Shown here piece after piece: positions 4,348-49,855 of a stretch of DNA of 64,000 nucleotides. A program made the translations under genes and the position numbers. The DNA is taken from NCBI GenBank assembly GCA_965208575.1, contig CBDBOV010000003.1, positions 256,001-320,000 on the forward strand, given 5' to 3'. The stretch is from Spirochaetia bacterium. Lineage in GTDB: Bacteria > Spirochaetota > Spirochaetia > SZUA-6 > Bin103. The first letter of the stretch is position 1. Each line of letters opens with the position of its first letter. The notes below the pieces were generated by a model that searched no databases, was not told the origin of the DNA, and was given only the letters and a program-made list of their open reading frames with translations.

Positions 4348-4869
4348 TTGACCCGCATTGCAGGTCCGTGCTAGGGTCGCACCGCAAAGTCATGCACGGC
4401 CCCTGTAGGCCCCCACAACAAGTCAAGTTAGCCCCCCCCCAGCTCTTCATATCCCGTAGATCGCTAACTGCTCGGGCTGGTCGCCCCGCGGGCGCCTTCG
4501 GCTTCAGCACTGGGGGTAGCGGCCGGCTCCGTGTACGTCGGCTCAGTCCACGTTCGTTCACTGACCAGCGCAACCGTCCTGGATCCCCGGTCCCCAACTC
4601 ACCGTCGCAAACGCAACGCCGTCAGGTATCTGGCTGGCCACCCTGTGGCCTGTGGCCCCGAAAAAAGCAGAAAGGAGGTGCACGCTGGTACTCGAGCAAC
4701 CACGCAACGCGCGCGGCCTGAGCCCATGAGCCCATGAGTGACGTGCCGCGCGCTGGACGATCCGAGATTGCCGTCGCTGCGCAGCCGCCCGCGTTGCGGG
4801 CGCGAAAGTGCGCAGGGAGTGGCGATTCGCTACAAATATACTCTCAAAACCCAACATACGGAGTTACGT
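4348..4869 (+). promoter_or_regulatory. Conserved cassette leader U2
   Basis: TTGACC-N18-TAGGGT 4348-4377; uORF1 4392-4721 with C9 at 4432-4440; AGGAGGTG 4673-4680 then CTG uORF2 4685-4729; hairpins to 4845; homologous to 9550-9940. Confidence 0.7.
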
Positions 4870-9425: not shown

Positions 9426-9964
9426 TTGACGGCTGTTGCAGAGCCGGCTATGGTGAACACGTTGGGATCGCGACCGATGCGCATGATGCATGACGACCCG
9501 AACCCGCGCAGCCACTGGTGGCCCTCGAAGCGGCCGGTGATACGTCTGTCCCCCCCCCCCCCCCCAGCGTTTTCGTACATCCGGTAGATCACTAACCGTA
9601 ACCGCTCGGGCTGGTCGCGCCGCGGGCGCTTTCGCCTTCAGCACCGGGGTAGCGGGCGGCTGCGCCGGGCGCCGGCTCAGTCCACGTTCGCTCACTCGTT
9701 CACTGACGCCCGCCACGGTCCTGGATCCCCCTTCCACTGGTCAATCACGTCATCACATCCACAACAACCCGGTATTCCCGGCGTACAGGAGGTGCAAAGT
9801 GGTACGCAAAGAACCGGACGCGCGCGCGGCGTAAGCCCCGTGAGTCACGCGCCGCGCGCCTGCGGAGTTGACTCTGTTCGAACGCCTGCGTTGCGGGCGC
9901 TGAGAGTACCGGAAGCGGCAATCGCTACCCGATACTCTCGAAATCTTTCTATCAGGAGTTGGTT
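9426..9964 (+). promoter_or_regulatory. Conserved cassette leader U3
   Basis: TTGACG-N17-TATGGT 9426-9454; uORF1 9477-9587 (36 aa) with C16 at 9550-9565; AGGAGGTG then GTG uORF2 9799-9834 MVRKEPDARAA; hairpins to 9939. Confidence 0.75.
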
Positions 9965-23200: not shown

Positions 23201-24187
23201 ACGTAACTCCGTATCTTGATTTTTGAGAGTATTGCGGAGCGGATTGCCCTCCCTGGCTACTCTCGGGCCCGCAACGCGGACGGCCAGTCCGAGTCAAGCT
23301 CCTGAGGCGCGCGGCGTGTGACTCACCGGGTTCGCCCGGGCTCACGCCGCGCGCGCGTGCGGTTCTTTGAGTATCATTTGCACCTCCTGGTGCGCCGGCA
23401 AAAACCGGCAAGGTTGTTGTAGCGACCCGCGGCGGCGCCGAGTCATGCATCGTCGCTCGCAAGGGTGGGGAGCTGCCGCAGGCGGCGCGGCTATGGTGAA
23501 CCCTACACGGGCACGCAGGCGGAAACGCCGGACACAGCCAAGGGAGCACCTACGGTCACGCCGGCCGGTAGCGCCCGGGCCGCGGAGCGGGTGGAGGGAA
23601 GGGGCCTGGCCAAAGGGAATCCGCGCCAGCAAAACGCGTCCCGGACACCGTGCCGGATGGGCGTGCGCAGTGCGCCGGAGCGGATACGTCAAGCAGCGCG
23701 ATCCCTTATAGCGCCATGGCACAGGCGTGCCCCTTCCTTTTGTATGGGTGCCGGCAACGCCCTCTGGTGTGGACTGGTGGAGGTTGCGGCCGACGGGGTC
23801 GGCCGTTGGACTCACGGATGTGCGGCGGGTGTGCGCCACACCGATTGATGGTGCCGCAGCCAGCACCGGCGCCGCGCACTGGGCTGCTGCGCGGTTGGCC
23901 GGGCGGCTCCTAGTAGCGCTCGGCTGTCGCGCGGTTAGCTGAGCGGCTAACGGTAGTCGGGTAGACTGCTGCCGGGGGGGGGGGCGGGTAAACGCGCCGG
24001 CCGCTTTGGGGCTAACGAGTTGCTGCGCGGGTAGGGGTCGTCGGGCATCATGCGCATCGGTCGCGAATCCATGGCCGTCAATGATAGCCGACGTCGCAAG
24101 CGCCGGCCGTCAGGCACATGTGGTAGCATCCGCATCGGTCAGGCTCCCAAGGTTGGTCAGCATAGCCGACGCGGCAACAACCGTCAA
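23201..24187 (-). promoter_or_regulatory. Conserved cassette leader U5
   Basis: TTGACG-N17-TATGCT 24187-24159; uORF1 24057-23947 (36 aa) with C11 at 23974-23984; AGGAGGTG then ATG uORF2 23377-23342 MILKEPHARAA; hairpins to 23225. Confidence 0.75.
23505..23700 (+). other. Possible group II intron remnant inside the U5 leader
   Basis: GGCGGAAACGCCGGACACAGCCAAGG and GCGGAGCGGGTGGAGGGAAGGGG..GGGAAT blocks, then SRTPCR..SAPERIRQAAR; resembles recalled intron and RT-start patterns; absent from other leaders. Confidence 0.5.
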
Positions 24188-31132: not shown

Positions 31133-31665
31133 AGAGATCGACCTCCGACAAATATTGTTTGAGAGCAGTCATTCCACTGCCGGCCCCTCGCCTGCTCCAT
31201 TCGAGCGAGGGCGACACCCCTTAGCGGTGCAGCCGCCCGGTCTTTCGTTAGTCTCTTGTCGCGTGCCTCCTTTGGCGCGCCGCGCCGAAAGGCAGCCATG
31301 CGCGCCGCCGCGCGTGGTGGCGGTGCTGCACGTCACCCATCTGCTTCTTGCTGCCGGCAAAGTCGCTACGCATGTTGATGTGGACTGGTGGAGTCGGCCG
31401 ACGTCGGCCGTTGGAGGCACGGATGCGTGGCGGGTGTGTGCCACGCGGATGGCTGGTGCCGCGCTCAGCACCGGCGCCGAGCGGCTGGCTGTCGCGCGGT
31501 CGGGTAGTCGGGTAGTCGGTAGTCGGGTAGTCGGTAGTCGGTAGTCGGTAGTCGGTAGTCGGTAGTCGGTAGTCGGTAGTCGGTAGTCGGTAGTCGGTGG
31601 CTGGGCTGGATGCTGTCGGTGCCCATTTGCGGACGAGTGTAGAGGCCGGCCCAAATCCGTGTCAA
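31133..31665 (-). promoter_or_regulatory. Divergent cassette leader U6
   Basis: TTGACA-N18-TACACT 31665-31636; uORF 31626-31465 spans the heptamer array; 31380-31500 homologous to 23770-23935; AAGGAGG kept but no clear uORF2. Confidence 0.65.
31502..31597. repeat. Heptamer tandem repeat (GGTAGTC) x13
   Basis: 13 TAGTC cores, a few units 8 bp. Confidence 0.97.
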
Positions 31666-31768
31666 GCGCGACCCACCGCGTTCACCGCGTTGCGACACCG
31701 CCAACCGGCCACTGCGCTGGCTGTCGTCATGGCTCGTCATCATTCGTCGAACCCGTAGGCGAGGCACA

Positions 31769-33263: not shown

Positions 33264-33345
33264 GACACGGGGATGTCCAGACACCACCTCGTGTCGCGGA
33301 GAGGCCTTACAGCGCGGCTGAGGCGACATTTCTTGACGCCGACCG
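33264..33345 (+). repeat. About 82-bp direct repeat, copy 1 (copy 2 at 35236-35318)
   Basis: GACACGGGG..CCAGACACCACCTCGTGTCG..GGCCTTACAGCGCGGCTGAGGCGAC; internal palindrome. Confidence 0.9.
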
Positions 33346-33672
33346 TCTGGCTCACGGATATACGGGCGTCAGAGACGCTCAGAAGTCATTTGCCGAGCCG
33401 GGTGATGCCGCCCACGCCGCGAGCGGCGCGCAGGTTGCTGCGGAGCGCACGGAGCGAGGCGCCCCGGACAACTGCACCGAGGTGCGTTGCCCGGGGCAGG
33501 GTCATGACAATTCCCCACCGCCGGGACGGGGTAGGCGACGAGGTTGCGACACCGGAGCCGTCGGGATCGAACGGGGCGGAGGAGATGCTGTACCCCGCTG
33601 ACGGACGGAGGGCGTAGCCCGACCGGAGTCAGCCGGCGCGGTGCCGTGGAGGCCACCGTGGACGACGCCGAG

Positions 33673-35217: not shown

Positions 35218-35359
35218 ATTGCATGGTTATGCATAGACACGGGGGTATCCAGACACCACCTCGTGTCGTGGAGGGGCCTTACAGCGCGGCTGAGGCGACG
35301 TTTTCTCATCGCTGACCGCCCATTCTCCGATTATCGACCGTCAGACCCGCCTGAGAGGG

Positions 35360-36634
35360 TCATTTTGCCGTGCGACCGCTGCCACCACGCTCCTCGCTCG
35401 GTGTTTGCACCGTGCTTGGTGCGGCCTTGGCGGTCTTGCTGACGTTCAGCTGCAGCAGATCCTCGGTCAACCTGGTCAGCTCGCGCTTGAGGGCGACCGG
35501 ATTCAACGTCGCGTACTGCTGCTTGAGGCGGTTCTTCACCTTCTCGCTCACCGACTCGGAGGCCAGCATGCGGTGATACGGCGTCTGCGGGTCGTCATAG
35601 ATGCGGCGCACCTTGCTGCCGGTGCGGGTTTTCTTCACCAGCTTCACCGAGGGATAGAAGAAGTTCACCAGCAGGCACAGCGGGCGGTATATCGCGTTGA
35701 GGGCAGCCAGTTCCCGGTCGGTGTCGTAACGCAGGTGGCCGACCGCCCGTCGCACCACGTGGCCATTCTTCTGCTCGACGTAGCAGGTGTCGTTCTTGCG
35801 ATGCGGGCGACCCCGAGTGAACGTGATGCCGTGCGCTTCGCAATAGCGCAGCAAATGATGATTGATGAACTCGCTGCCGTTGTCGGTGTCGATCCCCCGC
35901 ATCACGATCGGCAGGCTCTGCCGGGCAGCGTCGATCGCCTCGTGGGTCCAGCGCTGCGCCTTGTTCTGCACGCCGTACAGGTCGACCCAGCCGGTGTCAA
36001 CGTCGGTGATGGTGAGCGTGTGGCAGAAGTCGCCTGACGCGTTGCCGCCTTCATGGCCCACCAAGTCGATCTCGAAGAAGCCCGGCTCCTGCTCGTCCCA
36101 GTCAGCGAAGGTTCGGATCGCGATCTGATCCTTCAGGAGGGTGCCCGGCTTGGTGTGCGTGCGACCCTTCAGGCGCAGCCGTGCGCGCTCCTGCTGCAGC
36201 AGCCGGTCGATGGTCGCGGCGCTGATGGTCTGCAGCTTGCCGCGCACCGCTGCGGTCAGCTCGATCTCGCCGAACGACTCCAGCGTCGGCAGCATGGTGC
36301 GCAGCACGACCACCAGGCGCTTGCCGCACATGCAGTCGAACACGTACCAGATCAGCTTCAGAGCGACCAGCACCTCCTGGTCGTAGCGCCGCGGTCGCAC
36401 GCGGCGCTGGGCAGGCCGCGGACGCCCGACCACCAGCTTCACCAGTGTGCCGTCGACTCGCACCATGCGGGTCCGTCCCCACCAGGTCAACAGATGGATC
36501 GCGTACTTGCGCTGGTACCCGGTCGACTCGACGAACTCGTCGAGTATGCGCCCCTTCTCCTTCTTGCCCGCCCGACGATACCGCTGCGCGTGCTGCTCGG
36601 TGAGCTCTCGCCTTGAACTCATCTTCAACCCCAT
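35360..36634 (-). CDS. ISNCY-type DDE transposase (integrase core)
   Basis: EIDLVGH, DTDNGSEF, KND..YVEQKN. Confidence 0.88.
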   Translation of the reverse strand: MGLKMSSRRELTEQHAQRYRRAGKKEKGRILDEFVESTGYQRKYAIHLLTWWGRTRMVRVDGTLVKLVVGRPRPAQRRVRPRRYDQEVLVALKLIWYVFDCMCGKRLVVVLRTMLPTLESFGEIELTAAVRGKLQTISAATIDRLLQQERARLRLKGRTHTKPGTLLKDQIAIRTFADWDEQEPGFFEIDLVGHEGGNASGDFCHTLTITDVDTGWVDLYGVQNKAQRWTHEAIDAARQSLPIVMRGIDTDNGSEFINHHLLRYCEAHGITFTRGRPHRKNDTCYVEQKNGHVVRRAVGHLRYDTDRELAALNAIYRPLCLLVNFFYPSVKLVKKTRTGSKVRRIYDDPQTPYHRMLASESVSEKVKNRLKQQYATLNPVALKRELTRLTEDLLQLNVSKTAKAAPSTVQTPSEERGGSGRTAK

Positions 36635-36741
36635 CTCCTCCGGAACCTCCTCACGTCCCTCGGAGAGGCTCCAACCGGACCCGGAAGGTCCAGCCCGTTC
36701 GGTTAGATTTTTAGATGAGGCATGCTTTCGCTACGGTTAGA

Positions 36742-38718
36742 CCGAGGTTTGAGAGGCCGTTCTTGTAACTGTTTCCTATTACAGGAATTAGCGTGTTCAT
36801 GGGTGTAAATCGTGTCCATGTAAATAGTCCTGTGGTTCAGCGTTAATTTTCTCTCATCTGGTTGACATGTAATTATTAAATGATCTACCATTCCCTCCGT
36901 AGGGTGCCCATGTACATCGACACCGTCCCCAACCGCAACTCTCCCCCAGCCGTCCTCCTCCGCGAGTCCTTCCGCCAGCACGGCAAGGTCAAAAAACGCA
37001 CCATCGCCAACCTCTCCAAGTGGCCCGATCACCTCGTCGAGGGTTTGCGCGTCCTCCTCAACGGCGGTATCGCTCTGCGCTCTCCCAACGAACTGCTCTC
37101 CATCTTGCGCAGCTATCCCCACGGCCACGTCGCCGCCGTCCTCGGTTCCCTCCGCAAGCTCTCCCTCCATTCCCTCGTCGCTCGTCCCGCCTCCCGTGAA
37201 CGCGACCTGGTCGTCGCCATGATCGTCGCTCGCGTCGTCGACGCTCGCTCCAAACTCGCCACCGCTCGCGGCCTGAACCCCGAAAGCGCCGTCTCCTCCC
37301 TCGGCCACCTGCTGCAGTTGGGAGCCGTCGACGAGAATGAGCTGTATGCCGCCATGGATTGGCTGCTCGCTCGCCAGCACGGCATCGAGCAGCGCTTGGC
37401 CAAGCGCCATCTGCATGACAACACGCTCATGTTGTACGACCTGACTTCCAGTTACTTCCATGGCCACACCTGCCCGTTGGCGCGCCGTGGTCACAGCCGC
37501 GACGGCAAACGCGGCACCTTGCAGATCGTGTTCGGCCTGCTGTGTACCGCAGACGGCTGTCCCATCGCCGTCGAGGTATTCGAGGGCTCCACCAGTGACC
37601 CCAAGACGGTCGCCGCTCAGGTCGACAAGATTCGCAACCGTTTCGGCTTGCAGCGCGTCGTGCTGGTCGGCGACCGCGGCATGCTCACCGGCGCGCGCAT
37701 CCGCGAGGACCTGCAGGGGATCGACGGCCTGCGCTGGATCACGACCCTGCGGGCGCCCACCATCCGCAAGCTGATCGAGGCCGGCGAAGTGGCGCAGACC
37801 ATGTTCGACGAGCGTGACCTGGCGGAGATCAGCTCACCCGAGTTCCCCGGCGAGCGGCTGATCGTGTGCCGCAACCCGATCCTGGCCGAGCAACGGCAGC
37901 GCAAGAGGCAGAAGTTGCTGGCCTCCACGGAGGAGGAACTGACGCCGATCGTGACGGCCACGCAGCGCGCCAAAAAGCCGCTGCGCGGCGCCGCCGCGAT
38001 CGGCCTGCGGGTGGGCAAGGTGATCAACCACTACAAGGTGGGCAAGCATTTCACCACCACCATCACCGACGACTCGTTCTCGTTCGTGCGTGACCTGGAC
38101 AAGATCGCGGCCGAGGAAGAACTGGACGGGCTCTACATCGTGCGCTCCAACGTGGAGCCGGAGCTGTTCGACGCCGAGCAGACGGTGACGGCGTACAAGG
38201 ATCTGGCCAAGGTGGAGCGCGCCTTCCGCAGCATGAAAACGGTGGATCTGAAGGTGCGACCGATCTATCACCGCAGTGCTGACCGGGTGCGGGCGCACGT
38301 GTTCCTGTGCATGCTGGCCTACTACGTGGAGTGGCACATGCGCAGCAAGCTGGCGCCGGTGCTGTTCGACGACCACGACCGCGCCGCCGGCGAGGCGCTG
38401 CGCGAGTCGGTGGTGCAACCGGCGGAACGCTCACCGGCCGCACACCGGAAGGCGGCGAGCAAGCGTACCGACGACGGTCTGCCGGTGCACAGCTTTCGCA
38501 GCCTGATGAGCGAGTTGGGGACGCTGACGGCCAACCGCGTGCGGATAGTGGATAGCGGCGCCACGTTCACCATGCACAGCGAACCGACCGCGCTGCAGCA
38601 GCGCTGTTTCGATCTCCTGGAGGTCAGCGCCCAAGTGTAGCCAGTAACGGACATCGGCTGTTGAGCGCAATTTTCAGATCAATAACGAATTAACAAGATT
38701 CCCGCTCTGGAACTTCGG
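36742..38718 (+). mobile_element. IS1634-family element
   Basis: TSD GTTAGA 36736-36741 and 38719-38724; IRs CCGAGGTTTGAGAG / CTCTGGAACTTCGG. Confidence 0.9.
36910..38640 (+). CDS. IS1634 transposase
   Basis: YDLTSSYF, GHSRDGK, VGDRGM, VERAFR..K. Confidence 0.92.
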   Translation: MYIDTVPNRNSPPAVLLRESFRQHGKVKKRTIANLSKWPDHLVEGLRVLLNGGIALRSPNELLSILRSYPHGHVAAVLGSLRKLSLHSLVARPASRERDLVVAMIVARVVDARSKLATARGLNPESAVSSLGHLLQLGAVDENELYAAMDWLLARQHGIEQRLAKRHLHDNTLMLYDLTSSYFHGHTCPLARRGHSRDGKRGTLQIVFGLLCTADGCPIAVEVFEGSTSDPKTVAAQVDKIRNRFGLQRVVLVGDRGMLTGARIREDLQGIDGLRWITTLRAPTIRKLIEAGEVAQTMFDERDLAEISSPEFPGERLIVCRNPILAEQRQRKRQKLLASTEEELTPIVTATQRAKKPLRGAAAIGLRVGKVINHYKVGKHFTTTITDDSFSFVRDLDKIAAEEELDGLYIVRSNVEPELFDAEQTVTAYKDLAKVERAFRSMKTVDLKVRPIYHRSADRVRAHVFLCMLAYYVEWHMRSKLAPVLFDDHDRAAGEALRESVVQPAERSPAAHRKAASKRTDDGLPVHSFRSLMSELGTLTANRVRIVDSGATFTMHSEPTALQQRCFDLLEVSAQV

Positions 38719-39138
38719 GTTAGATTTTCGATGAGTCAATGCGGGTGCTGGAGTACCTGGTGTGGCGGGTATACGATGACGTAATCGACTGGTTCGTGCT
38801 TACCGAAGACGAGTACCGGCCCCTGGCGCCGGATGCCGCCGGGATTCTGTACAGCCAGACGTTCGCCGGTCTGCGCCTTGCCTCCAACGCGCTCCTCGCC
38901 GGCGACTTCGCCGGCGTGCTGTCCGAGTTGAGCAACGGCATCGCCACCCCTGAGCATTCCGCGTTCGTCGCCAAACTGGGATCGGCGTCCGCTCGATAGT
39001 CCGCCTCTCAGGTGCCGCGGTCGCGGAGTCAGCGGTCACGTAGCGTCGTCCAGTCACTCGGGTCGACGGCGGCACCCGCGCCCGCGCAGTCCGGCCCACC
39101 GTCCCGTATGCAGTCCACCCGGTCGCAATCGGCGCCAC

Positions 39139-39380
39139 CCTGGTGCGCCACGTGCTGCCCAACATCGCCGCGCCGCTGATCGTGATCTTCAGCATCAACG
39201 TCGGCAGCGTGGATCATCGCGATGGAGGAATTCGCGAACGGCGGATCGCCCGCTCCACCACGCTGGCCGATCTGAGCCCGGCATCCGTGGGCCGTGTGCT
39301 GGCGCCGCTGCGCCGCGGCGATGACCTGCTGGCCGAACTGCTCGACGATGATCGGGATTGATACGACGTTCCTGGATGAG
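39139..39380 (+). pseudogene. oppC fragment fused to a VapBC-like remnant
   Basis: 39139-39210 identical to 8394-8465; then antitoxin-like C-terminus and PIN-type start MIGIDTTFL at 39348. Confidence 0.65.
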
Positions 39381-39467
39381 AGGCCACGGGCTCGGTCGCA
39401 AACGACTGCTCGACACAGTCAGTCGATTGCCCTGGCACTACCTGCAACTGCTCTTGACGAAACGCGT

Positions 39468-39973
39468 TTGACACCTGGCCTCGTCCATGCCATGGTTGCG
39501 CGAAGCGGGCCGATGCGTATGACGCGTAACGACACCCTTCAGCGTTGCTTCCGGACGGTGGTCTTGCAACCGGTGCGCCCCCCGGCCGCGGAGGCGATAC
39601 ACCTAACTCTCCATCCTGCAGAAACAACCGAACGCTCCGGGCGACCGGGCGGCGCGTACGGGTGCTCCTGCGCGTGCCCTCGCCTTCGGCATCACACCGT
39701 CGACTATCGAACTACCGAGCCAGACCATCCGGGCGGCCCAGGCGGCAACCCGCGCGTGAGATCCGCCAAACGGGGAGGTGCACGTTGGTACGCAAGGAAC
39801 CACGCCACGCGCGCGGCCTGAGCCCATGAGCCCATGAGGCACCCGCCGCGCGCACGACGATCCGTGATTGCCGCCGCTGTTTGGCCGCCCGCGTTGCGGG
39901 CGCGAGAGTGGCAGGGAGCGGCAACTCACCATGGCAGAACTCTCAACACACAGAGAATCGAGGAGTGATCAAT
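39468..39973 (+). promoter_or_regulatory. Conserved cassette leader U7
   Basis: TTGACA-N17-CATGGT; uORF1 39513-39821 with C6 at 39578-39583; GGGAGGTG then TTG uORF2 39785-39829. Confidence 0.72.
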
Positions 39974-41773
39974 ATGGATCTTCCAAGAATCGCACACACC
40001 TTCGTGTGTGTGCTCGTGCTCGGCTTGGCCGCAACCGGCCTGTGGGCGGCTGCGGCGGAAGAGGAGCCGGCCGCGGCGATGGAGAAGGAAATGGTGCGCG
40101 ACCCGGCCACCGGCGAGATGGTCAGCGCGCCTGAGTATGGCGGGACATTTACCTATGCCACGTCGCTCGAGGCTCCGCATGCCGACACCCACGTCAGTCA
40201 TCTCCCGGGGCTGGTCACCAGCGGTGTCACGGAGAAGCTCGGAATCATGGACTGGGCAGTAGACCGGGACGTGTTTTCGTTCAGTCACTGGTACATGCCG
40301 CCATCCCTCTTTGTACCGCACCTGGCTGAGAGCTGGGACACCCCTGACCCACTCACGATCATCTTCAACATTCGCCAGGGCGTGTACTGGCAAGACAAGG
40401 CACCGATGAATGGGAGAGAGCTGACCGCTGATGATGTCGTATTCAACTTTCATCGCCAGCTGGGCCTGGGCGACTTTGCCGAAGCCGGACCGAGCCCCTT
40501 TACGTATGAGCGGCCACCACTGGGCGGGTCGGTAACGGCCACCGACCGATACACGGTCGTTATCGAGCTGGCGGAGCCGAGCAGCGGAGCTCTTGGGCAG
40601 TATCTCGGCATCGGTCTCACCTACATAAACCCCCCCGAAGTCATCAAGGAACACGGTGACATGAAGGACTGGAGGAACCTGGTCGGTACCGGTCCCTACA
40701 TGCTGACCGACTGGACCGAGGGCAGCTCCATGACCTTGCAGAGGAATCCTGATTACTGGAAAGACGATGAGAAGTACCCGGGGAATCGTCTGCCCTATAT
40801 CGACGAGATACAGGGCCTTTTCATCAAAGAGGAAGCAACAATTCTGGCGGGACTGCGCACGGCCAAGATTGACTTCATGGGGAGCACTACCGGTCCGCCC
40901 AACATCACATCGGTCGAAGTGCTCGACAGCATCCGCAAGAGCAATCCCGAAATCGTGCTGCAGCCGTGGTGGAGCCGTTCCGTAAACTCGTTTGTTATGG
41001 ACGCGAGCAAGCCGCCCTTTGACGACATCAGGGTGCGCAAAGCAATGCAGATGGCAATCGACCTCGAGGGCATTGACCGCGACTTCTACAAGGGCACTTC
41101 GATGTGGCAGCCTCAGGGGATAGTGGGGGAAGGCATCACCGAGTATTTCACCCCATTTGAAGAGTGGCCAGAAGAGGTCAAGAAGGGCTATCGGTACGAT
41201 CCGGCGGGGGCGGAAGCCTTGCTGGATGAGGCCGGATATCCGCGCGGTGCGGACGGCACCAGATTCAATACCACACTGAACGTTTCTGCTACACTCGATA
41301 TAGGCTACAGCGAACTGGCTGGTACGTACTGGGCTGAGATCGGCGTCGACGTGCAGATCAACCCATGGGATACTGGCCCCTTTGGGGCTGCTCGAAGGGA
41401 CCGTACTTGGGACGGTCTGATGTGGGAGCCTCTGGGCACGAATGGTAATCCCATGTCGTATATACGCGGCTCCGTACACTCGAGCAGTATGAATGACTTG
41501 CACGGAATCAGGTATCCTGAGTTGGACTCCCTTATTGAAGCCGCCGAAGCCACTGATTCCGAACAGGAGCGGCAGAAACTGGCTAAAGAGGTGGATCTGT
41601 ACACCATGGCGAACCACTGGTGGATATGGGGCCCTAAAACCGGCAGCTACATGGCGCACCAGCCGTGGATCGCCGGCTTCAACGGTGAAGTCTGGCTGGG
41701 ACGCATGGACTTCCTCACCGTCATCGCGCGCGTCTGGATCGACAGTGCGCTGAAGGCGGAAATGGGCAATTAG
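39974..41773 (+). CDS. ABC SBP family 5 (U7)
   Basis: GAGGAG RBS, family motifs. Confidence 0.92.
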   Translation: MDLPRIAHTFVCVLVLGLAATGLWAAAAEEEPAAAMEKEMVRDPATGEMVSAPEYGGTFTYATSLEAPHADTHVSHLPGLVTSGVTEKLGIMDWAVDRDVFSFSHWYMPPSLFVPHLAESWDTPDPLTIIFNIRQGVYWQDKAPMNGRELTADDVVFNFHRQLGLGDFAEAGPSPFTYERPPLGGSVTATDRYTVVIELAEPSSGALGQYLGIGLTYINPPEVIKEHGDMKDWRNLVGTGPYMLTDWTEGSSMTLQRNPDYWKDDEKYPGNRLPYIDEIQGLFIKEEATILAGLRTAKIDFMGSTTGPPNITSVEVLDSIRKSNPEIVLQPWWSRSVNSFVMDASKPPFDDIRVRKAMQMAIDLEGIDRDFYKGTSMWQPQGIVGEGITEYFTPFEEWPEEVKKGYRYDPAGAEALLDEAGYPRGADGTRFNTTLNVSATLDIGYSELAGTYWAEIGVDVQINPWDTGPFGAARRDRTWDGLMWEPLGTNGNPMSYIRGSVHSSSMNDLHGIRYPELDSLIEAAEATDSEQERQKLAKEVDLYTMANHWWIWGPKTGSYMAHQPWIAGFNGEVWLGRMDFLTVIARVWIDSALKAEMGN

Positions 41774-41856
41774 CTCTCCCTCCGGAGGGGGACAGGACAA
41801 CGGATTGTCCTCCTCCGAGGGTCAGATGACGGGAAGATCGCGGTGAGGCGCAGCAC

Positions 41857-42810
41857 ATGAAAGCCCACGTCATCAGGCGGTTGCTGCTGGTCATCCCCAC
41901 CCTGTTCATCCTCAGCATCCTGGTCTTTCTGTCGGTCCGCTTCATTCCGGGTGATGTGATCGACGTGATGCAAGGCAGGCTGGGCGGCCTGGGGCAGGTG
42001 GACCGTGCAGCGCTCGAGCGGATGCTGGGACTGGACCAGCCGGTGTACGTGCAGTACGGGCGCTGGTTGGGCGATATCCTGCTGCACGGCAGCCTGGGCC
42101 GCTCGCTGATGGGCGACTGGTCGGTAGAGGAGAAGATTCTCGCTCGATTGCCGGTCACCATCGAATTGGGCGTGCTGTCAATCGTCATCGGGCTGTTGAT
42201 CGCGCTCCCGGTCGGCATCTACTCGGCGATTCGCCAGGATACGGCGGTCGACTACGCCGGCCGCTCCATCGCCATCCTGGGCCTGGCAACGCCCAACTTC
42301 TGGCTCGCCCTGATGGTGATGATCTACCCGGCGATCTGGTGGGGCTGGTCGCCGCCGATGCGGCTGATCACGTTCAGCGAAGACCCGCTGGGGAACCTGG
42401 GCATGTTCCTGATTCCGAGCCTGATCCTGGGGACCTACCTGGCCGCCGCCACCATGCGCATGACGCGCACCATGATGCTGGAAGTGCTGCGCCAGGACTA
42501 CATCAGGACGGCGTGGTCCAAGGGCCTGAAGGAGCGGGTGGTGGTGGTGCGGCACGCGGTCAAGAACGTGCTGATTCCGGTGGTTACGCTGATCGGCCTG
42601 CAGTTGCCCATCCTGGTAGGCGGCGCCGTGATCATCGAGAATATCTTCAACCTGCCCGGTTTGGGCCGCCTGATGCTGGTGGCTCTCACTGACAGAGACT
42701 TCCCGGTGGTCGCCGGCATCAACCTGGTGTTCGGCACCGCGGTGATGGGGATCAACCTGATGATCGACCTGGTCTATGCGGTCCTGGATCCCCGGGTCCG
42801 GTACCAGTAG
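41857..42810 (+). CDS. OppB-type permease (U7)
   Basis: Full-length. Confidence 0.93.
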   Translation: MKAHVIRRLLLVIPTLFILSILVFLSVRFIPGDVIDVMQGRLGGLGQVDRAALERMLGLDQPVYVQYGRWLGDILLHGSLGRSLMGDWSVEEKILARLPVTIELGVLSIVIGLLIALPVGIYSAIRQDTAVDYAGRSIAILGLATPNFWLALMVMIYPAIWWGWSPPMRLITFSEDPLGNLGMFLIPSLILGTYLAAATMRMTRTMMLEVLRQDYIRTAWSKGLKERVVVVRHAVKNVLIPVVTLIGLQLPILVGGAVIIENIFNLPGLGRLMLVALTDRDFPVVAGINLVFGTAVMGINLMIDLVYAVLDPRVRYQ

Positions 42811-42829
42811 GGGCCGGGGACGTGGCAGC

Positions 42830-43708
42830 ATGCGCACGCGGTTCCTGACCCGGCTGGTCAGGGAGAAGCCGCTCGGCACGGCCAGCGGCATCGCCGTAGT
42901 GATCCTGATTCTGGTGGCCATCTTCGCCGACGTCCTCGCTCCCTATCCCTACGGGGAACGGCACCTGCCGGACCGCCTGCAGGGCTCATCGGCCCAGTAC
43001 CTGCTCGGTACCGACCACCTGGGGCGCGACCTCCTGAGCCGCATCATCCACGGCGCCCGGGTCTCTCTGACGGTGGGTCTGGCAGCCACCACGGTCAACG
43101 TGCTGGTCGCCGTACTGATCGGCGGCACGTCGGGATTCCTGGGCGGCAGGCTGGACCTGGTGGTGCAGCGGTTCGTGGATGCCTGGATGTCGTTCCCGGG
43201 ACTGCTGCTGTTGTTGACCGTCATATCGATCGTGGGCCAGGGGCTGCTGCAACTGATCGCGGTCCTGGGCATCTCGGGCGGCATCGTCGGCTCGCGCGTG
43301 CTCAGGAGCGCGGTCATCGGGGTAAAGGGGAACGACTATTTTCAGTCGGCGGTGGCGATCGGCGCCTCGCAGTGGAAGATCATCGTCCGCCACGTGCTGC
43401 CCAACATCGCGGCACCGATCATCGTGGTATTCAGCATCAACGTGGGGGGCGTGATCATCTCGGAGGCTGCGTTGAGCTTCCTGGGCTTCGGCCTGCCGAT
43501 CGAGATTCCGAGCTGGGGCGGGATGCTGAGCCGGGAGGGACGCCAGTACATGGAGGCGGCGCCGCACCTCGCGTTGTGGCCCGGCCTGGCGTTGACGGTC
43601 ACCGTGTACAGCCTGAACATGCTCGGCGACGCGGTGCGCGACCTGCTCGACCCGCGGCTGATCGGTGGCGCCGGCCGCCTGGGCGCGCAAGACACCCGGT
43701 CCGTGTAG
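42830..43708 (+). CDS. OppC-type permease (U7)
   Basis: Full-length; start uncertain. Confidence 0.92.
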   Translation: MRTRFLTRLVREKPLGTASGIAVVILILVAIFADVLAPYPYGERHLPDRLQGSSAQYLLGTDHLGRDLLSRIIHGARVSLTVGLAATTVNVLVAVLIGGTSGFLGGRLDLVVQRFVDAWMSFPGLLLLLTVISIVGQGLLQLIAVLGISGGIVGSRVLRSAVIGVKGNDYFQSAVAIGASQWKIIVRHVLPNIAAPIIVVFSINVGGVIISEAALSFLGFGLPIEIPSWGGMLSREGRQYMEAAPHLALWPGLALTVTVYSLNMLGDAVRDLLDPRLIGGAGRLGAQDTRSV

Positions 43709-43899
43709 CCGACGTTTAGTTTAGGCGCTGACGAGAGCTTGACTGACTACCGCGCATGTGAGACCGTGCCGCACCGTCGTAGCGCACACGAAGTGGGGCA
43801 AGGCGGCGGTTCCGGCCTTGTATCTGCGGCCACATGCCTTGCCGAAAGACAACACGAGCGATATCCTTGTAGTGACTGTGAGGCCACCGAGGGAAGAAT

Positions 43900-44157
43900 A
43901 TGCCCACGATTCTGTTTATTCTTGGCTGGCGATTGTTCTTTTACACAAATGAACGGCGTGAACCGCCTCATATTCATGGCCGTAAGGGTGATTGTGAATG
44001 CAAGTATTGGTTGGATACTGAAGACTACGATGTTCTTGAAGCTTACTGTTACAACATGAGCCCAAGGGATAAACGAGCAATTCGTAAAATCATTTTTGAT
44101 CATTTCGACTACATAATAGCGGAATGGAATCGAGTCCATAAAATGCGCAATGGATAA
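43900..44157 (+). CDS. DUF4160 protein
   Basis: MPTI..GWRLFFY.NE..EPPHIH; AT-rich. Confidence 0.82.
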   Translation: MPTILFILGWRLFFYTNERREPPHIHGRKGDCECKYWLDTEDYDVLEAYCYNMSPRDKRAIRKIIFDHFDYIIAEWNRVHKMRNG

Positions 44158-44416
44158 ACACTACAAGATAATCAAAGTGTCCTTTGAGGACGATACGATG
44201 GTACTACAGGTTGATGGTAATACCCATTTGATCAATATCAAAGGGCAGTCCCAAAGACTCGCCATGGCCTCACAAGCACAGCGGCAACACTATGTTGTCT
44301 CGCCTGCGGGATACGGAATTCACTGGCCGCTAGTCGACGAGGATCTTTCTATCGACGGCCTGATTGGCATTGAACACGCGCCTCCCCTGCACGAGGAATC
44401 CAGTCGGGTCCGCTAA
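44150..44416 (+). CDS. DUF2442 protein
   Basis: GYGIHWP.VDEDLSIDGL; overlaps DUF4160. Confidence 0.82.
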   Translation: MDKHYKIIKVSFEDDTMVLQVDGNTHLINIKGQSQRLAMASQAQRQHYVVSPAGYGIHWPLVDEDLSIDGLIGIEHAPPLHEESSRVR

Positions 44417-44534
44417 TGGTCTGACATTGAGTCCGCGCTACGACACGGCGAGGCGAAGGCGCGCTGCGGCATTCGCGGGTCCGGCAGGTCGCGTCGCACC
44501 GGCAGTCCTCTATGGCCAGCGTTACCTTGAGGCT

Positions 44535-45400
44535 CGCGAACCACAGCAGCCGAAAGGCCCGGCTGCCGCGCAGCAACTCTCCGTAGCCGCCACGGCTACG
44601 CATGGCACGCCTCCGGCCGGCGCTGCGCCCGAATAACACCACTGCCGCGCAGCGATTCGCCGCCGCGTTCACGCATGCGGCGCCCCCGGCGGTGACCACG
44701 ACGGGCGCCCGCGGCGGAGTTGGAGCGAGCCGTCGCGTGTCTCCTGATCGGTTGGCGGGATGGTGGAGATACCTGTCGCCGGCGTCAACAAGCAGATGCA
44801 ATTCGCGCAATGGGGTTGGAGGTGCTGATCGAGTTGGTCGAGCGCGCCGGGGTGCTGATGAGCGCCGCCAAGCCGGGGTAGGTTACATACCTCGCCATGA
44901 CTGCCGCCCACCCGCTGCCGCTCTCGTATATTGTGAGAACCTACGAGCTGAGTCCCGCGGTGCTGGAGACGGCAGCGCGGGCGGCGAAGCCGCAACGCTG
45001 GGAGGCGCTGATGTCAACGGTCGCGGAAGCATGGATGCGGGAGGGCAAGGCCGAGGGCAAGGCCCAGGGTAGAGCCGAGGGCAAGGCCGAGACGCTGCTT
45101 CGTCTTTTGCAGCGGCGATTCGGTCCCGTTGCGGAGAGTGCTCGGGCACGGGTGGCGGGCGGGTCGGCGGCGGAGATCGATGCCTGGTTCGATGCCCTGC
45201 TTGACGCGCAAAGCCTGACGGAGGTGTTCGACGCCCATCCGCAGTGAGCGCCGCCCGACCGCTCGGTGTGAGGCGAAGAGGTAACCGACCCATGCCGGCC
45301 CCCGTTCTGCTGACGGACCAACAGGTTCAGGACTACCTGACCCATGGCTACCTGGTGCGGCGATGCGGCCATCCGGCTGCGGTGCACCGGCGCATCCTGC
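44535..45400. pseudogene. Collapsed copy of 58880-60670 carrying an Rpn/DUF4351 C-terminal fragment
   Basis: MFS 5' end, DUF1801 3' end and PhyH 5' end in the same order; EGKAEG..LLRLLQRRFG at 44930-45247. Confidence 0.75.
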
Positions 45401-45537
45401 CGCCGCCGCCGTCAAGTCGCGCGGACGACCCCGCCGACCCCGCGAGGGCCACGATCTTGCGCCGCTTGCACTCTCGTGGCGGATGTGATAGAGTGACGAA
45501 ATGAAGCGAGCGAGAGCAACCGCTCAACCGCTCGCGT

Positions 45538-46060
45538 TTGACACCTGGCCTCGTCCATGCCACGGTTGCGCGAAGCGGGCCCGATGCGTATGACGCGCAA
45601 AGACACTTTTCAGCGTTGCTACCGGACGGTGGCTATCCAACCCGTGCGCCCGCCCGCCCCCCCCCCGGGGGGCCGCGGAGGCGATACACCTAACTCTCCA
45701 TCCTGCAGAAACAACCGAACGCTCCGGGCGACCGGGCGGCGCGTACGGGTGCTCCTGCGCGTGCCCTCGCCTTCGGCATCACACCGTCGACTATCGAACT
45801 ACCGAGCCAGACTATCCGGGCGGCCCAGGCGGCAACCCGCGCGTGAGATCCGCCAAACGGGGAGGTGCACGTTGGTACGCAAGGAACCACGCCACGCGCG
45901 CGGCCTGAGCCCATGAGCCCATGAGGCACCCGCCGCGCGCACGACGATCCGTGATTGCCGCCGCTGTTTGGCCGCCCGCGTTGCGGGCGCGAGAGTGGCA
46001 GGGAGCGGCAACTCACCATGGCAGAACTCTCAACACACAGAGAATCGAGGAGTGATCAAT
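45538..46060 (+). promoter_or_regulatory. Conserved cassette leader U8
   Basis: TTGACA-N17-CACGGT; uORF1 from 45584 with C10G6 at 45657-45672, in frame with uORF2 45872-45916. Confidence 0.72.
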
Positions 46061-47854
46061 ATGGATCTTCCAAGAATCGCACACACCTTCGTGTGTGTGC
46101 TCGTGCTCGGCTTGGCCGCAACCGGCCTGTGGGCGGCTGCGGCGGAAGAGGAGCCGGCCGCGGCGATGGAGAAGGAAATGGTGCGCGACCCGGCCACCGG
46201 CGAGATGGTCAGCGCTCCGCAGTATGGCGGGACCTTGACCTATGCCACCGGCGGGGCCGCTCCGGCGAATGCCGACACCCATTTCCTCCATGTCCAGGCA
46301 ATGGTCACCGGCGCCACCACGGAGAAGCTGGGCATCATGGACTGGGCCATCGACAGGGACGAGTTTTCGTTCCGCAACACGTACATACCGTTATCCGTCT
46401 ACCGACCACATCTGGCTGAGAGCTGGGACACTCCCGACCCGCTCACGATCATCTTCAACATCCGCAAGGGAGTGAACTGGCAAAACAAGGCGCCGATGAA
46501 CGGGAGGGAGTTTACCGCTGATGACGTCGTATTCAACTTTCGTCGCCTGCTGGGCCTGGGCGAGTTCGCCGAAGCCGGGCCGAGTCCCTTTACCTATCAG
46601 CGGCCACTTGGCGAGTCGGTAACGGCCACCGACCGATACACGGTCGTCATCAAGCTGCCGGAGCCCAGTGCCGTAGCGCTCGGACAGTATCTCGGCATCG
46701 GCCTCACCTACATGAACGCCCCCGAGGTGATCCGGGAGCACGGTGACGTGAAGGACTGGCGTAACCTGGTCGGTACCGGGCCCTATCTGCTGACCGATTG
46801 GACCGACGGTAGCTCATTTACCTTCCAGAAGAATCCCGACTACTGGAAAGACGACGAGAAGTACCCGGGGAATCGGCTGCCCTATATCGACGAGATACAG
46901 GGCCTTATCGTCCTGGAAGAAGCCACCTACCTGGCGGGGCTGCGCACCGGCAAGATTGATTTCCTGGGCTTTCCCGTTGGCGTCTCCGACATCACGTCGG
47001 TCGAAGTGCTTGAGAGCCTGCAGAAAAACAACCCCGAAATCATGCTGCAGGCGTGGTGGGACCGCTCGGAAAACTCGTATGCGATTGACGCGAGCAAGCC
47101 GCCGTTTGACGACGTCAGGGTGCGCCGGGCGATGCAGATGGCAATCGACCTCGAGGGCATCGACCGCAGCGTCTACCAGGGCACTTCAGCCTGGCAGCCT
47201 CAGGGTATAATCGGGGAAGGCGTCGGCGGGTACTTCACCCCTTTCGACGAGTGGCCCGAAGAGGTCAAGAAGGGCTATCGGTACGATCCGGCCGGGGCGG
47301 AAGCGTTGCTGGATGAGGCCGGTTATCCGCGCGGTGCCGACGGCACGCGATTCAAGACCGTGTTGAACCATCTCTATCGGTTTCCCTTGGGGTACAGCGA
47401 ACTGGCTGCCACCTACTGGGCCGAGATTGGCGTTGACGTGAAGATCAACGTATTGGATGAAGCTGACCCTGCGCGAAGCAACCGTACGTGGGAAGGTCTG
47501 ATATATCACACGATGGGCAACAATACTGAGCCGTTGGGTTTCGTACGCCAGATGGTCCACTCGAGCAGCCACGAAGACCTGCACGGAGTCAGGTACCCTG
47601 AGTTGGATGCCCTGCTCGACGCCGCCGCGGCCACTGATTCCGAACAGGAACGGCAGAGGCTGGTCAAAGAGGTGGATCTGTACACGATGGAGAACCACTG
47701 GTGGATATGGGGTCCCAAAGCCGGGAAGTACATGTCGCACCAGCCGTGGGTGGTCGGCTTCAACGGTGAAACCTGGCTTGGATTCATGGACCGCCTCACC
47801 ATCCTCGCACGTCTCTGGATCGACAGTGAACTGAAGGCGGAAATGGGTCATTAG
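46061..47854 (+). CDS. ABC SBP family 5 (U8)
   Basis: N-terminus identical to U7, body diverged. Confidence 0.92.
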   Translation: MDLPRIAHTFVCVLVLGLAATGLWAAAAEEEPAAAMEKEMVRDPATGEMVSAPQYGGTLTYATGGAAPANADTHFLHVQAMVTGATTEKLGIMDWAIDRDEFSFRNTYIPLSVYRPHLAESWDTPDPLTIIFNIRKGVNWQNKAPMNGREFTADDVVFNFRRLLGLGEFAEAGPSPFTYQRPLGESVTATDRYTVVIKLPEPSAVALGQYLGIGLTYMNAPEVIREHGDVKDWRNLVGTGPYLLTDWTDGSSFTFQKNPDYWKDDEKYPGNRLPYIDEIQGLIVLEEATYLAGLRTGKIDFLGFPVGVSDITSVEVLESLQKNNPEIMLQAWWDRSENSYAIDASKPPFDDVRVRRAMQMAIDLEGIDRSVYQGTSAWQPQGIIGEGVGGYFTPFDEWPEEVKKGYRYDPAGAEALLDEAGYPRGADGTRFKTVLNHLYRFPLGYSELAATYWAEIGVDVKINVLDEADPARSNRTWEGLIYHTMGNNTEPLGFVRQMVHSSSHEDLHGVRYPELDALLDAAAATDSEQERQRLVKEVDLYTMENHWWIWGPKAGKYMSHQPWVVGFNGETWLGFMDRLTILARLWIDSELKAEMGH

Positions 47855-47929
47855 CCTGGCGGAGGGGGGCAACGAAATTGTCCCCCTCCGAGGGTCCGAT
47901 GACGCGCAGATCGCGGAAAGGCGTAGCAC

Positions 47930-48883
47930 ATGAGAGCCCACGTCATCAGGCGGTTGCTGCTGGTCATCCCCACCCTGTTCATCCTCAGCATCCTGGTCTT
48001 TCTGTCGGTCCGCTTCATTCCGGGTGATGTGATCGACGTGATGCAAGGCAGGCTGGGCGGCCTGGGGCAGGTGGACCGTGCAGCGCTCGAGCGGATGCTG
48101 GGACTGGACCAGCCGGTGTACGTGCAGTACGGGCGCTGGTTGGGCGATATCCTGCTGCACGGCAGCCTGGGCCGCTCGCTGATGGGCGACTGGCTGGTAG
48201 AGGAGAAGATTCTCGCTCGATTGCCGGTCACCATCGAATTGGGCGTGCTGTCAATCGTCATCGGGCTGTTGATCGCGCTCCCGGTCGGCATCTACTCGGC
48301 GATTCGCCAGGATACGGCGGTCGACTACGCCGGCCGCTCGATCGCCATCCTGGGCCTGGCAACGCCCAACTTCTGGCTTGCCCTGATGGTGATGATCTAC
48401 CCGGCGATCTGGTGGGGCTGGTCGCCGCCGATGCGGCTGATCACGTTCCGCGAAGACCCGCTGGGGAACCTGGGCATGTTCCTGATTCCGAGCCTGATCC
48501 TGGGGACCTACCTGGCCGCCGCCACCATGCGCATGACGCGCACCATGATGCTGGAAGTGTTGCGCCAGGACTACATCCGCACCGCGTGGTCCAAGGGCCT
48601 GAAGGAGCGGGTGGTGGTGGTGCGGCACGCGGTCAAGAACGTGCTGATTCCGGTGGTTACGCTGATCGGCCTGCAGTTGCCCATCCTGGTGGGTGGCGCC
48701 GTCATCATCGAGAACATCTTCAACCTGCCCGGTTTGGGCCGCCTGATGCTGGTGGCGCTCACTGACAGAGACTTCCCGGTGGTCGCCGGCATCAACCTGG
48801 TGTTCGGCACCGCGGTGATGGGGATCAACCTGATGATCGACCTGGTCTATGCGGTCCTGGATCCCCGGGTCCGGTACCAGTAG
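47930..48883 (+). CDS. OppB-type permease (U8)
   Basis: Near-identical to U7. Confidence 0.93.
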   Translation: MRAHVIRRLLLVIPTLFILSILVFLSVRFIPGDVIDVMQGRLGGLGQVDRAALERMLGLDQPVYVQYGRWLGDILLHGSLGRSLMGDWLVEEKILARLPVTIELGVLSIVIGLLIALPVGIYSAIRQDTAVDYAGRSIAILGLATPNFWLALMVMIYPAIWWGWSPPMRLITFREDPLGNLGMFLIPSLILGTYLAAATMRMTRTMMLEVLRQDYIRTAWSKGLKERVVVVRHAVKNVLIPVVTLIGLQLPILVGGAVIIENIFNLPGLGRLMLVALTDRDFPVVAGINLVFGTAVMGINLMIDLVYAVLDPRVRYQ

Positions 48884-48902
48884 GGGCCGGGGACCTGGCA
48901 GC

Positions 48903-49781
48903 ATGCGCACGCGATTCCTGACCCGGCTGGTCAGGGAGAAGCCGCTCGGCACGGCCAGCGGCATCGCCGTAGTGATCCTGATTCTGGTGGCCATCTTCGC
49001 CGACGTCCTCGCTCCCTATCCCTATGGTGAGAGGCACCTGCCCGACCGCTTGCAGGGCTCATCGGCCCAGTACCTGCTCGGCACCGACCACCTGGGGCGC
49101 GACCTCCTGAGCCGCATCATCCACGGCGCCCGGGTCTCTCTGACGGTGGGTCTGGCAGCCACCACGGTCAACGTGCTGGTCGCCGTACTGATCGGCGGCA
49201 CGTCGGGATTCCTCGGCGGCAGGCTGGACCTGGTGGTGCAGCGGTTCGTGGATGCCTGGATGTCGTTCCCGGGACTGCTGCTGTTGTTGACCGTCATATC
49301 GATCGTGGGCCAGGGGCTGCTGCAACTGATCGCGGTCCTGGGCATCTCGGGCGGCATCGTCGGCTCGCGCGTGCTCAGGAGCGCGGTCATCGGGGTAAAG
49401 GGGAACGACTATTTTCAGTCGGCGGTGGCGATCGGCGCCTCGCAGTGGAAGATCATCGTCCGCCACGTGCTGCCTAACATCGCGGCACCGATCATCGTGG
49501 TATTCAGTATCAACGTGGGGGGCGTGATCATCTCGGAGGCTGCGTTGAGCTTTCTGGGCTTCGGCCTGCCGATCGAGATTCCGAGCTGGGGCGGGATGCT
49601 GAGCCGGGAGGGACGCCAGTACATGGAGGCGGCGCCGCACCTCGCGTTGTGGCCCGGCCTGGCGTTGACGGTCACCGTGTACAGCCTGAACATGCTCGGC
49701 GACGCGGTACGCGACCTGCTCGATCCGCGGCTGATCGGCGGCGCCGGCCGCCTGGGCGCGCAAGACACCCGGTCCGTGTAG
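48903..49781 (+). CDS. OppC-type permease (U8)
   Basis: Protein appears identical to U7 oppC. Confidence 0.92.
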   Translation: MRTRFLTRLVREKPLGTASGIAVVILILVAIFADVLAPYPYGERHLPDRLQGSSAQYLLGTDHLGRDLLSRIIHGARVSLTVGLAATTVNVLVAVLIGGTSGFLGGRLDLVVQRFVDAWMSFPGLLLLLTVISIVGQGLLQLIAVLGISGGIVGSRVLRSAVIGVKGNDYFQSAVAIGASQWKIIVRHVLPNIAAPIIVVFSINVGGVIISEAALSFLGFGLPIEIPSWGGMLSREGRQYMEAAPHLALWPGLALTVTVYSLNMLGDAVRDLLDPRLIGGAGRLGAQDTRSV

Positions 49782-49855
49782 CGGTAGTGAGCCGAAAAGG
49801 CGCTGCCGCATTCGCGCGTGCGCCGCATGCTTGACCAGGTGGATCTCGCCATGCT

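Follow-up and report, generated by a model that had tools for sequence, protein, structure and literature searches.

Phase variation by simple sequence repeats is known mostly from host-adapted pathogens with small genomes, where it controls surface structures; in the classical translational contingency loci, the repeat is a homopolymer or consists of units of 4 to 7 nucleotides (nt), and it is located early in the coding gene. Here, we describe C-rich repeats that are located behind the start of a leader open reading frame (ORF), in front of operons for ATP-binding cassette (ABC) importers. The window, i.e. the whole stretch of 64,000 nt that has been analysed, corresponds to G000 C3:256001-320000, part of a metagenome-assembled genome (MAG) of 6.5 Mb, with 67% GC and 6 contigs; it contains two tandem importer cassettes, U7 and U8, each of which consists of a leader, a gene for a substrate-binding protein of the SBP_bac_5 family and two permease genes. 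The tract that differs between the leaders of U7 and U8 is a member of a set of about 34 very variable C-rich repeats that are found behind leader-ORF starts before importer operons. The best single explanation, in our view, is a heritable switch that acts through the repeat-phased leader ORF; we put it forward tentatively, as a reading that falls somewhat short of being probable.

The sole worked leader-peptide example that our literature search has found (the supplements of the papers were not covered, and nothing was found on sponge symbionts or on importers) is the pil1 locus of Streptococcus gallolyticus, where GCAGA repeats shift a 5' leader peptide from one frame to another; transcription is raised by the long peptides, which have their stop in or beyond a stem-loop terminator (PMC3894217, in the accessible part of that report). 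The resemblance to the leaders described here, as far as that part of the report goes, lies in three features: the repeat is located in a leader ORF and has a unit that is not divisible by three (GCAGA in pil1; 1, 7, 8 or 10 nt in all 34 leaders here); the frame decides whether the stop falls well upstream of a stem-loop or within it, with the third frame stopping here at 39604-39606 in U7 and at 45691-45693 in U8; and two of the three frames are long, in pil1 as in U7 and U8. The differences are also clear: the units here are poly-C or 7- to 10-mers, the hairpin carries no U-tract and, under the usual rule, does not count as an intrinsic terminator, and a second small ORF, with a ribosome-binding site (RBS) of its own, shares the stop. 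Moreover, pil1 is a pilus locus of a pathogen, whereas here about 34 loci of one genome, known from sequence alone, precede ABC importers of an uncultured, sponge-associated bacterium.

In hmw1A of Haemophilus influenzae, the repeat (ATCTTTC)n is transcribed in the 5' untranslated region, where the repeats pair with a G-rich arm and form a long hairpin that is cut by RNase III, with no ORF being involved (PMC12721329, accessible part). Both systems place a pyrimidine-rich 7-mer repeat in a long 5' leader and, according to the same part of that source, the repeat number of hmw1A modulates expression post-transcriptionally; here, however, a leader ORF is involved, and among the leaders considered U8 is the one in which the C run is paired with a G run next to it. 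In the fold of U8, the C run is paired with the adjacent G6 and with a G-rich stretch about 80 nt downstream, while U7 folds differently; in the leaders of the main family that were read by eye, without a systematic fold, no G-rich partner arm for the repeats was seen. The contingency loci of Neisseria, Haemophilus and Campylobacter (PMC11955535 for Campylobacter, accessible part) have in common with the present leaders a repeat soon after a start codon, a unit that is not divisible by three, and a mixture of in-frame and out-of-frame states; the ORF that would be switched here is, however, a leader without a conserved protein and not an effector gene, and the setting is the large, GC-rich genome of a symbiont, with importers instead of surface antigens. 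Lastly, uncoupling on poly-Pro mRNAs that carry rut sites leads, in E. coli, to a Rho-dependent loss of expression (PMC5021804, accessible part). To such EF-P–Rho systems and to proline-codon leaders, as far as the sources at hand describe them, the present leaders are similar in that a long leader contains a short 5' ORF with Pro codons, in which the progress of the ribosome would decide on premature termination; those systems, however, sense physiology and not the length of a DNA tract, and runs of Pro are absent from many of the family members described here.

Direct reading of the U7 and U8 tracts and a MAFFT alignment of the two leaders agree with what the preliminary description, made from the letters alone, had stated: C6 in U7 is opposed to CCCGCCCG-C10-G6 in U8 (C10 at 45657-45666), and the alignment contains a single gap of 16 columns, located at the tract. 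The difference is composite, with (CCCG)2, C10 and G6 in U8 against C6 and G2 in U7, and is therefore not the result of one homopolymer slip. The 16-nt indel shifts the frame of the 5' leader ORF (uORF1) between the two cassettes: in U7, the ORF stops at 39819-39821 with the ending ..NHATRAA*, which U2 (C9) shares, while in U8 it is fused in frame with a second small ORF, uORF2, and runs to a stop at 45914-45916 with the ending ..VRKEPRHARGLSP*. The shared ending of U7 and U2, the fusion with uORF2 in U8 and the stop at exactly 36 amino acids in U3 (C16) and U5 (C11) had been proposed in that description, and the coordinates confirm them.

In the subfamily of U7 and U8, two of the three frames reach the hairpin, and the two cassettes take one each, with stops that are located 8 nt apart. 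Since both frames are long, the pair is not an ON/OFF contrast in any model where reaching the hairpin is what counts, and a functional difference between U7 and U8 is unlikely. The earlier proposal of a switch that acts through a leader ORF holds in so far as the tract is located in a 5' leader ORF, its length sets the frame, and the site is hypervariable between paralogs and between species; it probably does not hold for U7 and U8 as the two opposite states. By coordinate arithmetic, U8 with C11 would end its ORF at the TAA of the third frame after 36 amino acids, and U7 with C5 would do so after about 30.

The two cassettes (39463-43709 and 45533-49782) are 90.4% identical, but the identity is distributed as a mosaic: on the 5' side of the tract, about 12 substitutions and one indel occur within about 115 nt; from the tract to about position 40140, i.e. 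over the 3' part of the leader and the signal peptide, a single mismatch occurs among some 560 nt; identity is about 80% over the portion for the mature binding protein and about 98% over the permeases. The tract is therefore located at the 5' edge of a recently homogenised block, and the mosaic suggests flanks that have been gene-converted around a diverging ligand-binding part.

The comparison of the leaders across the genome has revealed a typical order of elements: a TTGAC(A/G) box, a -10-like hexamer, an ATG, the repeat, a C-rich motif, a variable stretch, uORF2 with its hairpin, and the RBS of the importer gene. The TTGAC(A/G) box is found by eye at the equivalent place in 24 of 25 family leaders, and the combination of a -35 box with a -10-like hexamer is matched by a loose regular expression in 20 of the 25; a sigma-70 scan of the U7 and U8 leaders predicted no promoter, which for U7 is explained by the weak -10 hexamer (CATGGT). 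The conserved ATG is located 13-21 nt after the -10-like hexamer and opens a conserved stretch of about 70 nt (53 nhmmer hits); of 50 distinct copies of this stretch, which precedes the tract, 49 have an open ATG frame, and stops interrupt the other two frames in 49 and 47 copies. The repeat follows from a few to about 22 codons after the start codon of the leader ORF. A repeat switch in the promoter spacer was also considered and rejected, because the tract begins about 105-120 nt downstream of the TTGACA box and not between the hexamers.

On the 3' side of the repeat, a conserved C-rich, G-poor motif with stops in one or two frames is followed by a variable stretch of 100-700 nt. Next comes uORF2, which has a strong RBS and 11-14 codons, and which occurs in 49 copies in the genome (the first version of the search pattern gave 259 hits, mostly false, and was tightened); a 9-bp GC stem has its 5' arm in the last codons of uORF2. 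This stem is kept in 46-48 of 48 distinct copies, with the family stop located just 3' of the 5' arm, as seen in the folded U7 copy; it is nearly invariant and, for this reason, gives no evidence from covariation. The RBS, uORF2, the stem and a second small hairpin belong to a conserved element of 150 nt (39774-39924 and 45861-46011 in the window), and the RBS of the importer gene is located about 100-150 nt past the hairpin. Rfam gave no match at the gathering score in the whole window, and only two chance-level matches (E>2) at 39300-40100. At G000 C6:950790-951190 and C4:525400-525150 (minus strand), the promoter-like box and the first ~60 nt of the leader ORF are repeated as two to three tandem copies with a spacing of about 125 nt; (CGGTGACGT)4 is present in one of them, and the ORF of an upstream copy ends in an ATGA overlap with the next ATG.

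The association of the repeats with the leaders extends over the whole genome. The numbers of C/G runs in G000 do not show the expected decay with length, being 121 for runs of 7, 13 for 8, 14 for 9, 9 for 10, 5 for 11 and 14 for 12-55; of the 55 runs of at least 8, 23 precede one of the 62 blastn copies of the 150-nt leader element by less than 1200 nt, where we estimate that about 0.6 would be expected by chance, and all 23 have C on the sense strand. By tblastn, 133 SBP_bac_5 paralogs are found in the 6.5 Mb of G000, often in tandem cassettes without adjoining ATPase genes, and 34 of the 103 simple repeats of the genome are located within 1.5 kb upstream of one of these paralogs. On the sense strand, 33 of the 34 leader repeats are rich in C and poor in G, and the units of the leader repeats are of 1 nt (26 repeats), 8 nt (3), 10 nt (3) or 7 nt (2), i.e. 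none of the 34 is divisible by three; among the remaining 69 repeats of the genome, 32 have a unit that is divisible by three. In 48 loci of related genomes, the main C-rich multi-copy leader repeats likewise have units of 7, 8, 10 or 1 nt, and units of 15, 39 and 42 nt, which are divisible by three, occur further inside the leaders of some relatives.

Long homopolymers, such as a run of 55, are hard to size, and an artefact of assembly or sequencing in homopolymers has to be considered for a genome that is a metagenome assembly of 6 contigs, in which single-base errors in long runs are possible; one leader contains such a run of 55 (G000 C4:509488-509542; G on the listed strand, C on the sense strand), whose exact length is doubtful in any assembly. 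As an explanation of the pattern, such an artefact is very improbable: the U8 tract includes parts that are not homopolymers, heteropolymeric repeats of 7-10 nt are found at the equivalent place, and the pattern recurs across independent assemblies.

The frame that runs from the repeat to the hairpin has been analysed in the 22 leaders in which a repeat and uORF2 occur together. In 16 of them, against 3.5 expected from shuffles, no stop interrupts the uORF2 frame between the repeat and uORF2, a distance of 129-772 nt, and in 21 of the 22 (8.7 expected) at least one of the frames is open over this distance. In addition, the distance from the open frame of the downstream motif to uORF2 is a multiple of three in 16 of 25 leaders, over 15 different lengths (binomial 0.0016); the control for this phase test, i.e. 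the start of uORF2 against the start of the SBP gene, had only 6 usable cases and was not used. The figures for the open frame argue that the frame is kept open, i.e. that ribosomes pass. When the phase of the ATG frame is considered in the 25 leaders with a proximal tract, 12 are long (8 end at the family stop and 4 beside it), 11 are short, with a stop 10-15 codons past the tract, and 2 have no ORF by the start rule that was applied.

These same leaders could be read in terms of the RNA itself, with the frame being irrelevant: the C-rich tract would be a loading site for Rho or for another binder of C-rich RNA, and its length would tune attenuation gradually. The bias of the leader repeats towards C on the sense strand agrees with this proposal, as do the excess of C over G from the repeat to about +180 (mean C 0.42-0.45 against G 0.27-0.30 over +40 to +180, with the lowest G, 0.19-0.22, in the first 40 nt), the presence of Rho, the length of the leaders, the lack of an intrinsic terminator in the scans of U7 and U8, and, by our own reading, a repeat that may start at the RNA's 5' terminus in the low-GC relatives that are described below. 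A value of 0.27-0.30 for G is, however, merely moderately low, and the proposal explains neither why none of the 34 units is divisible by three nor why 16 of 22 leaders keep one frame open between the repeat and the hairpin. We consider it unlikely as an account of its own, although it is compatible with the switch through the leader ORF and is partly contained in it.

The length of the tract differs in all five close pairs of paralogs (9/12, 55/10, 9/6, 9/20 and 55/7); a sixth pair that had been listed is excluded, as it consists of two runs within one leader. Between genomes, the copy number of TCCAATCCCG is about 15 and about 3 in the tandem orthologs of one relative, and about 4 in another relative; the leader of U3 and that of G006:C30 are almost identical over about 250 nt on the 3' side of the tract and cannot be aligned at the tract, so that here, as in U7 and U8, the tract is the exact point at which the similarity is lost. 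In G006, a genome of the same genus, the leaders that correspond to those of U7/U8 and U3 (L051, G006:C50, and L085, G006:C31) carry clean deletions of about 310 and 127 nt, which remove the start region of the ORF together with the tract and, in the first case, also the 5' arm of the hairpin; since the repeat segment is deleted, these orthologs offered no comparison of lengths. A similar layout is found in a leader family that ends in ..MQPKTGYD*, with an RBS and ATG of its own (L002, L004, L005), and in a low-GC family that ends in ..ISTSGRDP*, where the stop is located in the loop of a hairpin with two complementary arms of 8 nt. In the low-GC relatives (L012, L013, L020, L027, L029, L039 and L048), C-rich 7-mer repeats in 4-39 copies are located right after a promoter-like site of the form TTGAYA-N18-TAnnnT.

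Such variability would also be produced by slippage-prone junk, i.e. by a hotspot of mutation or recombination in a fast-evolving leader, with lengths that have no regulatory effect. This neutral account draws on the long state of both U7 and U8, on the fact that the tract borders a block that has been homogenised recently, both in U7/U8 and in the comparison of U3 with G006:C30, on the relative in which the whole repeat-bearing segment is cleanly deleted, and on the lack of clear amino-acid conservation in the leader ORF. It does not lead one to expect a repeat that is placed precisely, after a conserved ATG, in 34 leaders or more and in three leader families whose ORFs have dissimilar ends, nor the strand bias, the lack of units divisible by three and the excess of open frames; with these features in mind, we regard it as rather unlikely.

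The switch through the leader ORF would operate as follows. We infer that the leader ORF is translated, that the length of the repeat changes within populations, and that the frame affects expression: the repeat would be located in a leader ORF at the 5' end of the transcripts of the SBP_bac_5 importer operons, where its length sets the frame. In the long phase, ribosomes initiating at the 5' ATG would cross the whole leader of 200-700 nt and terminate at a conserved stop beside or inside the GC hairpin, with about 100-150 nt left to the importer gene; the short phase would halt them about 10-15 codons after the repeat. By analogy with pil1, the long phase would open the hairpin and cover the C-rich leader, with the operon being up, while in the short phase the hairpin would remain closed and the naked, C-rich RNA would offer a possible loading site for Rho, with the operon being down. 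Rho-dependent polarity or a translational effect is proposed for this step because the hairpin has no U-tract; genes for both Rho and EF-P are present in the genome. A wider version of this reading is doubtful: it would consist of a "phasome" of at least 30 ABC-importer operons, where a hypermutable, C-rich repeat phases a leader ORF that is translated but otherwise meaningless, the transit of ribosomes to the hairpin together with Rho sets the on and off states, and the layout has arisen in three or more leader families whose ORFs end dissimilarly.

Poly-C encodes Pro in every frame, and this fact underlies a further proposal, a sensor that is not heritable. Slippage of RNA polymerase on long C runs and frameshifting at CCC-C are known phenomena, and the mgt leaders of Salmonella contain leader ORFs with proline codons; slippage, a +1 shift at CCC-C or a poly-Pro stall that is relieved by EF-P would, in the leaders described here, report on translation capacity or on the supply of proline. 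The U8 leader ORF contains ..PPAPPPG.., other leaders contain up to about 18 Pro, EF-P is present, and the loss of EF-P lowers the expression of poly-Pro mRNAs with rut sites through Rho (PMC5021804, accessible part). This sensor is nevertheless quite improbable, since the units (TCCAATCCCG)n, (CCGACTA)n and others in orthologous or paralogous leaders encode no Pro runs and are not slippery homopolymers, and since U7, with only C6, has two Pro. The same orthologous leaders, with (TCCAATCCCG)n or (CCGACTA)n at the equivalent place, speak against poly-Pro stalling as the general mechanism, a contribution that had been suggested at the outset: stalling is not the common principle, because other units at that place encode no Pro runs, but with EF-P present it may add to the effect in the poly-C leaders.

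Several observations weigh against the heritable switch through the leader ORF. With regard to the frame-to-expression step, no terminator is predicted on the plus strand in the U7 or U8 leader and no U run follows the 3' arm, so that the hairpin does not fit an intrinsic attenuator of the pil1 type and the step would have to rely on Rho or on translation; furthermore, uORF2 has its own strong RBS, and the hairpin may therefore open in every phase. With regard to variation, the C6 of U7 is short for a slippage-prone tract and U7 and U8 both read long; as MutS is present, there is no sign of a mutator background; and in the contigs of runs X1, X5, X6 and X7, no indel is found at 39578-39583 or 45649-45672 among the matches listed, a result that is uninformative either way. 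By our reading of the low-GC relatives, the promoter spacer may include the ATG that precedes the repeat.

The frame statistics have limits: the paralogs share ancestry, and the figures therefore overstate independence. On the relatives, a fixed-anchor phase test placed 4 of 12 leaders in phase, i.e. without enrichment; because the open frame of the anchor differs between subfamilies, this test was replaced by an anchor-free test, in which the uORF2 frame is open in 5 of 11 leaders, a weaker result than in G000. The coding character of the leader ORF is also weak: GC at codon positions 1/2/3 amounts to 0.70/0.66/0.70, compared with 0.57/0.53/0.75 in real genes, and the ATG frame exceeds the other two only slightly in its share of synonymous changes (0.282, with 0.227 and 0.249 in the others). 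A regulatory leader ORF predicts openness without a protein, as is seen here, and the flat codon GC and nearly flat synonymous share fit the view that only openness matters; they also fit with no translation at all. The leader ORF as a normal protein gene was rejected on account of the lack of a Pfam family, the flat codon-position GC and the almost absent synonymous excess.

The coordinates of the features of U7 and U8, and of the other leaders of the window, are listed in Table 1.

Table 1. Positions in the window of the elements of the U7 and U8 cassettes and of the tracts in other leaders.
Feature	Position	Strand	Remarks
TTGACA, -35-like box of U7	39468..39473	+	duplicated unit begins at 39463
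U7 leader ORF (uORF1)	39513..39821	+	102 amino acids; no Pfam family
U7 C6 tract	39578..39583	+	
TAA closing the third (short) frame 3' of the U7 tract	39604..39606	+	
U7 uORF2, TTG start after GGAGGTG, 14 codons	39785..39829	+	G000 C3:295785; one of 49 genome copies
Conserved GC hairpin, U7	39809..39853	+	arms 39809-39816 and 39846-39853; U7 stop just 3' of the 5' arm
U7 SBP_bac_5 substrate-binding protein gene	39974..41773	+	Pfam PF00496, E 2.2e-66
U7 ABC permease gene pair	41857..43708	+	Pfam BPD_transp_1, OppC_N
TTGACA, -35-like box of U8	45538..45543	+	
U8 leader ORF	45584..45916	+	110 amino acids, fused with uORF2; no Pfam family
U8 composite tract CCCGCCCG-C10-G6	45649..45672	+	
TAA closing the third (short) frame 3' of the U8 tract	45691..45693	+	
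U8 uORF2, TTG start, 14 codons	45872..45916	+	G000 C3:301872
Conserved hairpin, U8 copy	45896..45940	+	identical to U7 copy
U8 SBP_bac_5 gene	46061..47854	+	Pfam PF00496, E 6.1e-66
U8 ABC permease gene pair	47930..49781	+	~98% identity to the U7 pair
U2 C9 tract, homologous leader	4432..4440	+	leader ORF ends ..NHATRAA* at 4721
U3 C16 tract	9550..9565	+	leader ORF ATG 9477 to 9587, 36 amino acids, short phase
U5 C11 tract (G11 on the plus strand)	23974..23984	-	leader ORF ATG 24057 to 23947, 36 amino acids
U6 leader repeat (CCGACTA)n, ~13 copies, equivalent place	31503..31598	-	

The sequencing runs, 24 in number, were available in contig form, and four of them (X1, X5, X6 and X7) have been compared, as fragmented unitigs, with positions 29300-49200 of the window; in the RNA runs, merely 5-6% of the words were present, and two sequence patterns that were scanned across metagenomes gave no match each. 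At position 39509, four bases on the 5' side of the ATG of the U7 leader, a contig of X6 has one extra C, which is the state of U8 in G000. Directly upstream of U7, at 36880-38637, a gene for a DDE transposase (PF01609) is located; the contig depth over this gene is about 10-30 times that of the neighbouring bins in all four runs, and it therefore belongs to a multi-copy insertion sequence. The relatives of G000 are assemblies from sponge-type samples; the close ones among them, with binding proteins of up to 93% identity, are labelled Spirochaetia, Aggregatilineales, Dehalococcoidia or "bacterium", so that the public taxon labels are unreliable for the lineage.

Taken by analogy with the published systems, the pattern appears to be the logic of a leader-peptide phase switch in a new setting. 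Annotation pipelines will label such leader ORFs as hypothetical proteins of varying length; if the switch is real, a searchable signature would be at hand for other genomes, i.e. an ATG, a repeat with a unit that is not divisible by three, a long open frame and a stop in a hairpin. A clonal population would then be a combinatorial mix of nutrient-uptake repertoires, with bet-hedging on substrates and not on surface antigens; the uptake of nutrients would be diversified cheaply among the cells within a sponge, and this would provide a reason why these genomes retain 133 paralogous genes for binding proteins.

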